The notes: generated by a model from the letters alone, not told the origin. Shown: positions 3,570-9,980, counted from the first letter of the stretch. The stretch: DNA of 9,980 nt from Candidatus Odinarchaeia archaeon (GCA_029856525.1 JAHQXC010000050.1:1-9980); one strand, 5' to 3'. Numbers and translations: made by a program.

Positions 3570-4181
3570 ATGCCTATTTTAGAGCGGCTTATATCATGGT
3601 TGAGAGGCCCTAAATTATCTGACTTGAATAGAAAACTAGAGGTTGTATGCAGGAAACTTGAACTTGAAAGTTTAAGATTGGATAAACAGGCTAAAAGTAA
3701 TCGAGCTAAAGCTAAAAAAGCACGTTTAGAAGGGGATGAGCAGGCTGCTAAAACATATATAAACCACTATCTTAAATTCAAGAACTCTATTCTTGAAATA
3801 GACTCGTATAGGCTTGGAATAGAAGGGCTTTTAACGGATCTTAGAATGAATGAAGCTGTCAGCGATGTTTCAAAAATTCTAGGGAATCTTAAATATGTTA
3901 TAAACATCGTTAAAAACAGGATTAGAATTCCAGATTTAACTAAAACACTGGAAGAAATAGATAGAAGCATGAAGCATATTAGCGGAGCTAAAGATTTAGC
4001 TGAAACCCGGATTCTATCTATGACTAAAGTAAGCCAGATTCAACAAGAGGATGTTCAAAAGGTTTTAAACGAGATAGACCAGGAGATCGCGGTTGAAGCT
4101 GAGAAATCCCTGCCTGAACCTTCAGGTAAGATCTCCGAACTGGAAAGGGAGATTGAGAAAATGAAGGAGTCTAATGTTTAA
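3570..4181 (+). CDS. ESCRT-III subunit, A-type (Vps2/24/46-like, Snf7-fold)
   Basis: N-terminal amphipathic helix MPILERLISWLRG. Basic helical hairpin (AKKARLEGDEQAAKTY). RIPDLTKTLEEI resembles Vps2 NLPQIQKIMMEF. Acidic C-terminus with SLPEP and a MIM1-like LEREIEKMK. Confidence 0.88.
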   Translation: MPILERLISWLRGPKLSDLNRKLEVVCRKLELESLRLDKQAKSNRAKAKKARLEGDEQAAKTYINHYLKFKNSILEIDSYRLGIEGLLTDLRMNEAVSDVSKILGNLKYVINIVKNRIRIPDLTKTLEEIDRSMKHISGAKDLAETRILSMTKVSQIQQEDVQKVLNEIDQEIAVEAEKSLPEPSGKISELEREIEKMKESNV

Positions 4182-4207: not shown

Positions 4208-4849
4208 TTGGGTTTTTTAAGAAAACTATTCCCTAGTAGAAAGAAATCTAAGGATGAGATACTCGCCGAACTTAGAGCTACTATAAATAGATTCACTTTA
4301 ATAAGCAGACAGTATTATAATAGAGCTGTTGATAGCAGGGATAATGCTAAAAAATGTTTAAGACAAGGAGATGTTGAAACCGCTCGCAGTCAGCTTAAAC
4401 GTTGGAGTAAATATATTGCTCGTTTTAAAAGATACCAGCAACAGGTTGATATATTAGAGGATACTATTGAAAGCATTCACTCCGCTGAGGATGCTGCGAC
4501 AATGCATAAAGCTCTCGAATCAGCTAATATATTATTGTCTAAGTCAGTTGAATTTTTAACTATGGATAAAGCTATTGAAACTAGAATGGAAACCCAGGAT
4601 TTAATTAATGAGATAGAGGCTAAGCAAGAGGAGCTTTCACGGGCTCTTGAAATAGGCGTTGAAGATGAATCTTTCATTGACAGGGAGCTTGAAAAATTAC
4701 AGAACGAGGTGGCTGTTGAAGCAGCCGCCTCTCTGCCTGAGACGCCTAGTGAAACACCTCTAGAGTTATCTGAACGTGACAGAATTAAAAAAGAGGTTGA
4801 AGAGTTGAAAAAAGCGCTTTCAGAAGAGAATTTAGAGGAGAAAGAATAG
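4208..4849 (+). CDS. ESCRT-III subunit, B-type (Vps20/32/60 / Snf7-like)
   Basis: TTG start with a perfect GGAGGT at 4196-4201. MGFLRKLF amphipathic start. Snf7-like segments LRATI, ARSQLKRWSKY, LEDTIESIHSA, EELSRAL and IDRELEKLQNE. MIM2-like SLPETPSETP (compare CHMP6 ELPEVPSEPLP) and a terminal helix RDRIKKEVEELKKAL. Confidence 0.9.
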   Translation: MGFLRKLFPSRKKSKDEILAELRATINRFTLISRQYYNRAVDSRDNAKKCLRQGDVETARSQLKRWSKYIARFKRYQQQVDILEDTIESIHSAEDAATMHKALESANILLSKSVEFLTMDKAIETRMETQDLINEIEAKQEELSRALEIGVEDESFIDRELEKLQNEVAVEAAASLPETPSETPLELSERDRIKKEVEELKKALSEENLEEKE

Positions 4850-4857
4850 GGGGCCAA

Positions 4858-4864
4858 TTTTTTT
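4858..4864 (+). terminator. T7 tract terminating the ESCRT-IIIA/B transcript
   Basis: TTTTTTT starts 9 nt after the ESCRT-IIIB stop, typical of archaeal oligo-U termination. Confidence 0.6.
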
Positions 4865-4866
4865 AA

Positions 4867-4881
4867 CGTAATGTTTATATG
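4867..4881 (+). promoter_or_regulatory. BRE/TATA-like promoter (CGTAATG-TTTATATG) with no long ORF directly downstream
   Basis: TTTATATG at 4874-4881 is a near-consensus archaeal TATA box. Usual spacing puts the TSS at about 4903-4906, exactly where the GC-rich structured segment begins. Confidence 0.45.
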
Positions 4882-4904
4882 AGTGTATCTTTTAAAATAG
4901 GATT

Positions 4905-5006
4905 GATGCGGGGTTCAAGCGCCCTAAGACTCCTGCTTTATGAAGCTGCCCGGTTAAATCTGGTAGCCTCATTTTAAGCGGGAAGCGTTCAACCGTTGAA
5001 CGCACA
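4905..5006 (+). ncRNA. Candidate structured ncRNA or miniature IS200/IS605-derived (omegaRNA-like) element
   Basis: 53 G+C in 101 nt (4905-5005) between very AT-rich flanks. Hairpins at 4908-4936, 4945-4967, 4968-4982 (degenerate) and a perfect 8-bp stem at 4985-5003. Upstream TATA. TTGAT at 4903-4907 and TTCAA at 4988-4992. Confidence 0.4.
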
Positions 5007-5013
5007 CTTGAAC

Positions 5014-5044
5014 TATATAAAAGTGGAATTAAAGTTAATTCCAC
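5014..5044 (+). promoter_or_regulatory. ssb promoter TATA (TATATAAA, 5014-5021) followed by a perfect inverted repeat GTGGAATTAA-AG-TTAATTCCAC (5023-5044), a likely operator
   Basis: 10-bp arms with a 2-nt spacer lie between the TATA box and the predicted TSS (~5044-5047), about 30 nt before ATG 5074. Confidence 0.6.
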
Positions 5045-5073
5045 GTTAAAAATTCGATACGAGTTGAGTATGA

Positions 5074-5541
5074 ATGTCTGATGAAAATGAGAGAACTGGA
5101 CAGTTTATAACTGTTGAAGAGTTGAAACCTAACTCTAAAAATGTGAATTTAAAAGTGAAAGTAGTATCTAAGACTGAGACTAGGGAGGTTGTATCTAGGA
5201 TTTCCGGGGAAACGCTTAGAGTTGCTGAAGCTTTAGTGGGTGATGAGACAGCGTCTATTCTATTAACATTGTGGAATGATGATATTGATAATCTTAAAGA
5301 TGGGAAGATCTATCAGATTAACAACGGTTATGTGACATTGTTTAAAGGCTCTATGAGGCTGAACACAGGGAAATATGGTAGTATTGAGGAGATTGAAGCA
5401 GAGGATTTCGGAGAGGTGAACTCTGAGAAGAATTTATCTGATCAGGTTTTCGAACAGCCTAGGTTTAAACGGCCGTTTAACCCTTCTCAGAGAGATTTCA
5501 GCCGTAGAGATCAGCGTAGACGTAGTTTTAGAAGAAGATAA
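5074..5541 (+). CDS. ssb: Single-stranded DNA-binding protein, single OB-fold (Sulfolobus SSB / RPA / hSSB1-like) with an Arg-rich tail
   Basis: LKPNSKNVNLKVKVV, VAEALVGDETASILLTLWND and IYQINNGYVTLFKGSMRLNTGK parallel crenarchaeal SSB ([55 protein letters not shown]). Confidence 0.9.
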   Translation: MSDENERTGQFITVEELKPNSKNVNLKVKVVSKTETREVVSRISGETLRVAEALVGDETASILLTLWNDDIDNLKDGKIYQINNGYVTLFKGSMRLNTGKYGSIEEIEAEDFGEVNSEKNLSDQVFEQPRFKRPFNPSQRDFSRRDQRRRSFRRR

Positions 5542-9912: not shown

Positions 9913-9954
9913 TAAAAGCTTGATAAATAAAATTAAATCTTTAACTTTATTGGC

Positions 9955-9980
9955 GTGAAGTTCCCTGCGAAAGCCGGGGG
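9955..9980 (-). mobile_element. Possible IS200/IS605-family right end (hairpin plus TTCAC), truncated by the window edge
   Basis: The minus strand reads CCCCCGGC-TTTC-GCAGGGAAC-TTCAC, resembling the common IS605 right-end pattern GAAG-CCCC..TTT..GGGG..TTCAC. It is a GC-rich hairpin next to an AT-rich intergenic stretch. Only 26 nt are visible. Confidence 0.3.

Follow-up and report, generated by a model that had tools for sequence, protein, structure and literature searches.

The GC-rich block upstream of ssb in a contig of Candidatus Odinarchaeia archaeon is very probably a diverged copy of a protein-less IS200/IS605 mini-transposon (PATE), and not an unrelated small RNA. It covers positions 4866-5013 of the window, by which we mean the whole 9,980-nt stretch that was analysed: contig C85 of a genome of 1.32 Mb in 127 contigs (G000, 93% complete). 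The initial annotation had seen here a miniature IS200/IS605 element, or an orphan omegaRNA; it was right in kind, and the kind of element has already been described. According to Pfam, the window encodes, in this order, ESCRT-II, Vps4, two Snf7 proteins, an Ssb-like OB-fold protein and a longin-Arf GTPase. We take these to be the Asgard gene set.

The block upstream of ssb and its parts

Pfam places the first Snf7 gene at 3570-4181, the second (an ESCRT-III reading frame on the + strand) at 4208-4849 and ssb (Ssb-like_OB) at 5074-5541, with the ATG at 5074. The second Snf7 gene and ssb are separated by a 224-nt spacer, in which the block stands. Its GC content reaches 0.51 (4900-4999), compared with 0.30-0.39 for the flanks. 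A predicted fold of -43.7 kcal/mol for the + strand of 4895-5015 (z = -3.4 relative to dinucleotide shuffles) and the retention of the block in relatives confirm the GC-rich, foldable segment first described. The - strand of the same segment folds about equally well (z = -3.6), so fold energy alone gives no strand.

Upstream of the block, direct reading of the + strand confirmed the run of seven T after the ESCRT-III gene (4858-4864). With the next A (4858-4865) it ends in TTTA (4862-4865), the likely insertion target, or TAM, because TTTA precedes every copy of the PATE family described below. As a second role, the T run may be the oligo-T terminator of the ESCRT-III gene. A residual left end with its own promoter follows on the + strand (4866-4899) and aligns with the family promoter; 23 of its 34 columns are invariant, and the mean pairwise identity is 0.83 (5 sequences). 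The TATA box reported for this place, TTTATATG at 4874-4881 (TTTATAT, 4874-4880, in our alignment), is present and conserved among orthologs. The predicted transcript would start 20-25 nt past the TATA box with the 5' tail GGATTGATGCGGG (4900-4912, + strand), in which ATGCGGGG is invariant and aligns with GGATAAAGATGC in the family.

The proposed + strand fold consists of four helices. The closing helix P0 pairs GTTCAAGCG (4913-4921) with positions 5005-5013 of the 3' tail ACACTTGAAC (5004-5013), both in the minimum-energy fold and in RNAalifold. Alternatively, 4913-4921 forms the loop between GGGG (4910-4913) and CCCT (4922-4925), a local hairpin that matches the first hairpin of the omegaRNA scaffold as it occurs in tnpB 3' ends. 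The core stem-loop (4932-4982) is colinear with the PATE copies on contigs C32 and C119 and with tnpB 3' ends. It holds helix P2, CCTGCT (4932-4937) with AGCGGG (4977-4982), whose pairs are invariant, and helix P3, TGAAGCTGCC (4941-4950) with GGTAGCCTCA (4962-4971), which shows covariation. The core internal loop reads TA / TTTTA here and K-turn-like GA / ATTGA in the family consensus; judged by eye, the family's K-turn-like G.A pairs appear to have become U-A/A-U, which would keep the helix but probably not the kink. The terminal hairpin, GCGTTCAA-CCG-TTGAACGC (4985-5003), corresponds to the subterminal palindrome of the family's right end, and the 3' tail after it is the right end in the colinear alignment. 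GTTCAA at 4913 and 4987 and TTGAAC at 4996, which had been put forward as alternative pairing partners, were both found as claimed, and there is a further TTGAAC at 5008.

Comparison of five related sequences gave this fold modest covariation support. Paired cells made up 82.6% in the proposed fold versus 29-42% when the partners were slid, seven pairs change on both sides, and the covariation score was reached by 4 of 500 shuffles. In P0, two pairs have changed in both partners, one from C-G to U-A and the other from G-C to A-U. The interspecies identity of the terminal hairpin is 0.50, yet three of its pairs keep pairing through changes on both sides.

Several known classes of RNA were considered for the block. 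A tRNA, including a split or intron-bearing one, was ruled out by ARAGORN, which returned nothing credible in the block, also with introns allowed and at lower thresholds. A C/D-box or H/ACA guide RNA was rejected by eye: GATGC/CTAA are not C/D boxes, and the ACA after the last hairpin is not conserved. Rfam 15 had no match at E values up to 10 in 4866-5013, and none for canonical PATE copies or a full tnpB element. At 127-148 nt, the ssb copy is too short for a transposase and has no conserved reading frame; the sole small frame, 23 codons from the ATG at 4906, carries a frameshift and an early stop in G002 and a stop in G003 (by eye).

Between the element and ssb there is a flank (5014-5073, + strand) that would be the 'guide' if the right end were at 5013. 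In the alignment of orthologs it begins with an A/T box (5014-5022), followed on the same strand by the palindrome GTGGAATTAAAGTTAATTCCAC (5023-5044) with perfect 10-bp arms and by the invariant CGTTAAAAAT (5045-5054). This last box, some 24 nt ahead of the ssb ATG, is the probable core promoter of ssb, and a box of this type stands at a like distance before the ssb ATG in the sister family as well. Since ssb seems to have this core promoter of its own, the element is not simply the ssb promoter. The palindrome may serve in ssb control as an operator or a hairpin; from species to species its arms show paired changes (GTGG..CCAC versus GCGG..TCGC), and the sister family's spacer lacks it.

A mini-transposon family and its tnpB relatives

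A first BLAST search of 4860-5072 against the genome found the block itself alone. The single-copy reading is wrong because the ssb copy is too diverged for BLAST, and profile and covariance-model searches are needed. The relatives were discovered with a covariance model of four orthologs (R1), which gave three weak extra matches in the genome, on contigs C32, C55 and C119. Word-7 blastn with the C32 and C119 copies and then nhmmer raised the number to 29 hits, about 20 of them near full length and several at contig ends. The dispersed copies with different 3' flanks that the initial annotation had suggested looking for were thus found, about 29 in all, by sensitive search. As with the ssb block, a TATA box precedes each of the first three copies by about 25 nt, and the four share the string GATGYGGGG-N8-9-CCYT-RAGA-NN-CCTGCT ... 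AGCRGG. Four occurrences of the 28-nt motif GGGG-N-YCTRAG-N-CCTGCT were counted in the genome, each in a PATE element, and none in the reversed control.

The family is a mini-transposon of about 190 nt (range about 185-215) with sharp ends and unrelated flanks in the alignment. It begins with ACTTTATCGG directly after TTTA and closes with GGGGTAGTTCAC; every genuine left end has TTTA ahead of ACTTTATC. The 5' part runs from the TTTA of the flank through ACTTTATCGG, a GC-rich hairpin with a GAAA loop and the TATA box to AAAGATGC. The 3' part has an optional first hairpin, a stem with the K-turn-like GA / ATTGA and a small apical hairpin, and the element ends with a second GC-rich hairpin and the terminus GTAGTTCAC. 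RNAalifold gave no useful consensus on the short-form family. When inspected by eye, the internal loop of the family's main stem (5' GA / 3' ATT-GA) is flanked by GCT/AGC and GAC/GTC, for example in L049:73-258 (minus strand) and L012:1501-1632, with A for G in some copies. It reads as a kink-turn, a possible L7Ae site in an archaeal omegaRNA.

The family was compared with the related genomes of the genus (G001-G003). BLAST with a canonical copy gave 29 matches in G000 and none in G001-G003, so the burst is specific to the species of G000. The C32, C55 and C119 copies are absent from the matching sites of G001-G003, where flank searches found empty sites; at the C32 site the flanks in G001 abut exactly (...CTTTA directly followed by ATTC). 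Empty sites in relatives do therefore exist as foreseen, but for these three other copies. No empty site of the ssb copy (TTTTTTTA joined to the flank) was found: in the sister family, the outgroup compared, the Snf7-ssb neighbourhood is kept, and the spacer is not alignable and has no significant match to any of three HMMs.

A second PATE copy lies in the window itself. Its left end, TTTA followed by ACTTTATTGGCGTGAAGTTCCCTGCGAAAGCCGGGGG, is at 9940-9980 on the + strand (nhmmer E = 4e-4 and 1.4e-6) and is cut by the contig end, so that the likeness noted earlier between the block and the window's far end has a real basis. PATE copies are also seen at the ends of contigs C17 and C31, and the family probably causes many of the 127 contig breaks of the genome. 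The C55 copy (L013:1418-1529, minus strand) and the C119 copy (L014:676-885) lie directly upstream of genes. By translation and by eye, one of the two precedes the RBS of an iron-type alcohol/glycerol dehydrogenase-like gene and the other precedes a gene for a small DUF134-like DNA-binding protein; the outward-reading promoters of these copies could now drive the genes.

The genome has both tnpA and tnpB, as a search proposed at the outset showed: the two together on contig C44 and a second tnpB on C93. The C44 tnpA is of the IS200 type, and its product may be the enzyme that moved the PATE family. Upstream of this tnpA-tnpB pair, C44 7990-8140 (L051:190-340) resembles the left end of the C119 mini-element, and the likeness extends to the promoter variant (AGCTGATAGTCTTATAAAAGATAT) as well as the segment of the first hairpin. 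For the C93 protein there are matches to structures of Cas12f and TnpB, and its element has a right end of another subtype, ...GTAGCTCAC. No full-length element of exactly the parental subtype was found in the G000 assembly.

Full-length tnpB-only elements with PATE-type ends are carried by three genomes of the sister family. Those at L072 (G006:C32), L064-L066 and L074 are intact, encode 384-399 aa, use a TTTA target and have the right end GTAGTTCAC. At L072, TTTA is followed by a left end and promoter that match positions 2-84 of the family model (E = 3e-5) and by a 389-aa tnpB, whose last ~90 nt match, together with the right end, positions 96-185 (E = 2e-9). Its stop codon is inside the loop of the right-end hairpin, and the element terminates in GTAGTTCAC. 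Left end and promoter are shared between PATEs and sister-family tnpB elements with E = 2e-10 and 3e-5, and the expected match of the family's 3' half to tnpB 3' ends and right ends was obtained at E = 2e-9. Other tnpB 3' ends have the same order of parts: first hairpin, CCTGY, stem-loop, AGCAGG, AAGC, hairpin and tail. When the canonical copy was used in BLAST against the sister family, it matched solely right ends beside tnpB.

Because target, left end and right end are shared with the PATEs, the sister-family tnpB-only elements are the likely parental lineage, and the short elements are tnpB transposons with a deleted core. The parent would have been a tnpB-only (IS1341-type) element from which the tnpB reading frame was deleted, joining the left end and promoter to the last ~90-120 nt. 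This retained segment would be the omegaRNA scaffold, ending at the right end and reading into the flank. What the family retains is the left end after TTTA, the parent's promoter, and the last ~90 nt of tnpB with the right end.

Link of the ssb copy to the family and its boundaries

We used profile and covariance-model searches to connect the ssb copy with this family. The five best non-self matches in G000 of an HMM built from the five orthologs include four PATE copies (C55, E = 1.6e-6; C32, 2.8e-4; C119, 3.8e-3; C16, 0.05), the other match being on C118 (0.036). The C32 and C119 alignments are colinear with the ssb copy from the promoter to the terminal hairpin. C55 in turn matches the long-form family HMM (E = 5.6e-6), which also matches the ortholog in the metagenome contig L015 (19.5 bits). 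Over 151 genomes of the phylum, R1 found four orthologs, C32 and C55, and nothing else. A second covariance model (R2), in which seven long PATE copies were combined with four tnpB 3' ends, had its top match on the ssb block in four of the five loci, that in G002 being elsewhere. E values were 9e-7 for L015, 0.002 for G003, 0.008 for the window (4908-4992) and 0.7 for G001, where the match is weak and partial. Two further metagenome pattern matches, L016 and L017, were discarded as chance matches.

The link from the ssb copy to tnpB is transitive, since the ortholog HMM found nothing significant on tnpB loci and the best match of the family HMMs on the window copy has E = 2.6. TTTA, the promoter with its spacing and the order of helices all agree between the ssb copy and the family, and it is by homology (R2) that the window copy is placed on the omegaRNA scaffold, the tnpB 3' end with the right end. 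We have good reason, from these comparisons of sequence, to regard the ssb copy as an ancient, fixed PATE (4866-5013 or 4866-4992) with the parent's promoter and omegaRNA scaffold. The profile and covariance-model matches thus bear out the original proposal of a miniature, ORF-less IS200/IS605 derivative with an omegaRNA-type scaffold and a promoter of its own.

Subterminal palindromes were looked for at both ends. The right-end type is present (4985-5003), and the left-end hairpin (CCCCCTGCGAAAGCTGGGGG, about 50 nt in the family) is missing in five of five orthologs, all of which have the same shortened form, TTTTAACGTAAYGTTTATAT. The left-end hairpin is needed by the TnpA transposase. This makes the ssb copy a truncated derivative that can no longer move, as opposed to an intact PATE, and the common shortened form indicates that the hairpin was lost before speciation. 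The element would have inserted behind a TTTA in the spacer of the ESCRT-III gene and ssb at a time before the genus divided into its four known species. Later it would have lost the left-end hairpin, precluding further movement by TnpA, and diverged until only profile searches link it to its relatives.

The boundaries differ from those first proposed. TTGAT (4903-4907) and TTCAA (4988-4992), taken by the initial annotation as the junctions, are both present as strings. At the left, G002 has TTAAT in place of TTGAT, and both G003 and the metagenome contig have TGGAT; at the right, TTCAA is TTCGA in G001 and CCCAA in G002, so neither pentamer is a conserved junction mark. The flanks of TTGAT are conserved, the homology to the family runs straight across it into the promoter, and the family inserts after TTTA. 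The analogy with ISDra2 (target TTGAT, end TTCAA) accordingly fails at the target, and TTGAT lies in the 5' tail of the transcript. Homology to the family begins in the promoter, at about 4866-4880, and the probable left boundary is TTTA (4862-4865) followed by AC, a placement that rests on few bases.

For the right end there are two candidates, of which TTCAA at 4992 is one and 5013 (CTTGAAC) the other. Alignments with the complete C32 and C119 copies and the fold make the terminal hairpin part of the element, which would then end at 5013. R2 aligns GGTAGCCTCATTTTAAGCGGGAAGC-GTTCAA with GGAAGCCCCATCCGATAGGGAGGGGTAGTTCAC of the family, with the end at 4992; GTTCAA (4987-4992) is the best sequence match to the family terminus GTTCAC, and G001 reads GGGGTAGCGTTCGA at this position. 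Both registers are possible because the family has a repeated GGAAGCC motif. The 85-bp unit of the first proposal survives in part: R2 matches exactly 4908-4992, and the whole element is larger, the 85 bp being the RNA scaffold only.

Conservation, present role and known systems

The block is found in the same place, between Snf7 and ssb, in G000-G003 and in the G003-like metagenome contig L015, with 80-84% identity in G001-G003. It changes more slowly than synonymous sites in the genes on either side. In pairwise comparison of G000 with G001, G002 and G003 the element has identities of 0.86, 0.80 and 0.69, versus 0.69, 0.62 and 0.52 at fourfold-degenerate sites of two flanking genes (one-sided Fisher p = 0.0007-0.004 for the G000 pairs); of the six pairs of species, two give a weak or non-significant difference (p = 0.017 for G001-G002, p = 0.07 for G001-G003). 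By region, identity is 0.83 in the promoter, 0.82 in the 5' tail and 0.77 in the core stem-loop; the linker and terminal hairpin are near neutral in sequence (0.50-0.52). Spacers at other loci, such as C32, are not alignable between the same genomes.

Three of the four species lack an intact TnpB, and all four keep the ssb copy. G002 (one contig, 98% complete) and G003 have no match to the TnpB domain (PF07282) and, with the C93 TnpB as query, no intact reading frame, G002 giving only a stop-ridden trace. G001 has only TnpB fragments with stop codons. No nuclease-dead TnpB-like gene of the TldR type was found in G002 or G003. In G000, neither 5014-5029 nor 5014-5033 has a second genomic match with up to 1 mismatch, nor does the guide of the first proposal (the 20-mer 4993-5012) with up to 3 mismatches, and there is no TTTA-flanked match to either candidate guide.

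Taken together, the slow change of the block, its presence in TnpB-free genomes, the lack of a second target and guides that differ between species argue against present guiding of a TnpB and for a constraint independent of TnpB. We think it fairly likely that the conserved promoter still makes a folded RNA of about 110 nt running towards ssb. We regard it as a nearly even matter whether the block is kept because it now serves the host independently of TnpB, either in the form of a stable small RNA or as a promoter/leader module upstream of ssb. The fullest form of such host reuse, itself plausible, is offered tentatively: an omegaRNA module adopted by the host without the nuclease, acting independently of TnpB as a small RNA, or tuning ssb as a structured transcript from upstream, and held by purifying selection since before the genus diversified, in genomes purged of TnpB and of all other copies. 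The constraint would act on the RNA or on the region upstream of ssb; the conservation could instead come from overlap with ssb control. Pairing of the RNA with the ssb start region was rejected, with RNAduplex energies no better than for shuffled targets in five of five sequences, and the CTCATTTT/AAAATGAG match between the two is not conserved.

A decaying fossil of the same origin, with no present use, is rather unlikely in our estimation. Its conservation would be apparent only, caused by short divergence times, by AT-biased synonymous sites that make a poor yardstick, or by overlapping ssb control sequences. The near-neutral terminal hairpin and linker, the loss of the family's K-turn-like GA motifs, the weak G001-G002 and G001-G003 comparisons and a data set of five sequences all fit such decay. 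It has to contend with a promoter and first 80 nt of RNA that are 0.77-0.83 identical while fourfold sites are at 0.50-0.69, with other intergenic spacers of the same genomes that cannot be aligned at all, and with stems that keep pairing through changes on both sides. Overlap with the core promoter leaves 4866-4982 unexplained, as ssb has its own invariant A/T box closer to the start.

That the ssb copy still guides a TnpB is very unlikely, and we regard as highly improbable also the wider proposal of a working guide RNA, loaded in trans by TnpB or by a nuclease-dead TnpB-like repressor and carrying its guide in the 16-20 nt past the right end. This was the function suggested at the outset (TnpB or TldR in trans), and it is unsupported in view of G002 and G003 without a TnpB match, the broken fragments in G001 and the lack of a second target. 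The scaffold architecture is kept (first hairpin, CCTGCT/AGCGGG stem, terminal hairpin and tail), G000 has tnpB genes, and if the right end is at 5013, the putative guide spans the stretch immediately before ssb; but the block is conserved in G001-G003 despite the lack of an intact TnpB, candidate guides find no second or TTTA-flanked match in G000 and differ between species, and the scaffold is too diverged for the family HMM. There is also only a slight chance that the block is a lineage-specific small RNA or ssb 5' leader without transposon ancestry, its likeness to PATEs being due to chance or to capture of a host RNA. Such a reading could draw on the lack of a direct significant match to tnpB loci and of an Rfam family. 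It is opposed by the best non-self matches of the two independent ortholog profiles (in 1.3 Mb and in 151 genomes, respectively), which are mostly PATE copies and colinear, and by the promoter, spacing, TTTA left junction and helix order common to the ssb copy and PATEs. The direction of descent is fixed by the sister family, where this sequence forms the coding 3' end of tnpB. Descent from a PATE is thus the reading that we retain.

PATEs, or palindrome-associated transposable elements, were defined in Haloquadratum walsbyi as gene-less derivatives of IS200/IS605 (IS1341-type) elements (PMC3119063), and PATE-like elements in Geobacillus stearothermophilus 'often encode omegaRNAs' for use in trans (PMC10055086). 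Like these, the G000 family has no terminal inverted repeats, makes no target duplication and inserts after a fixed 4-nt target; it has subterminal palindromes as in the parent tnpB element, an origin by core deletion and an omegaRNA region. Unlike them, it has the parental left-end promoter fused directly to the scaffold, and the ssb copy lacks the left-end palindrome, is orthologous across the whole genus, changes more slowly than synonymous sites and persists without any other PATE or an intact TnpB. The omegaRNA, or reRNA, of TnpB (PMC8612924; structure, PMC10097598; processing, PMC10278001) likewise has a scaffold from the tnpB 3' end and right end that ends at the boundary, with a transcript continuing into the flank; at the ssb copy, in contrast, there is no adjacent tnpB, and the scaffold is known by homology only. 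TldR proteins are nuclease-dead TnpB repressors with guide RNAs (bioRxiv 10.1101/2023.11.30.569447). The ssb copy resembles them as a transposon-derived guide-RNA module fixed in the host genome beside a promoter, but TldR is defined by a domesticated protein gene beside the guide RNA, and neither such a gene nor a target match was found here.

An orphan structured RNA in an Asgard archaeon would thus be explained by descent from a known mobile element, with its boundaries corrected. One Odinarchaeial species has undergone a burst of about 29 guide-RNA-bearing mini-transposons, with none in its congeners, and one much older PATE copy is kept by all species of the genus. As the family probably lies behind many contig breaks in G000, masking it is advisable before novel RNAs are called there. 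The ssb copy stands out by its age and by being conserved in genomes free of TnpB. To our knowledge, known domestications (Cas12, TldR) keep the protein. If the ssb copy is truly selected without TnpB, the host would have reused the omegaRNA scaffold alone, by a route different from that of Cas12 and TldR.
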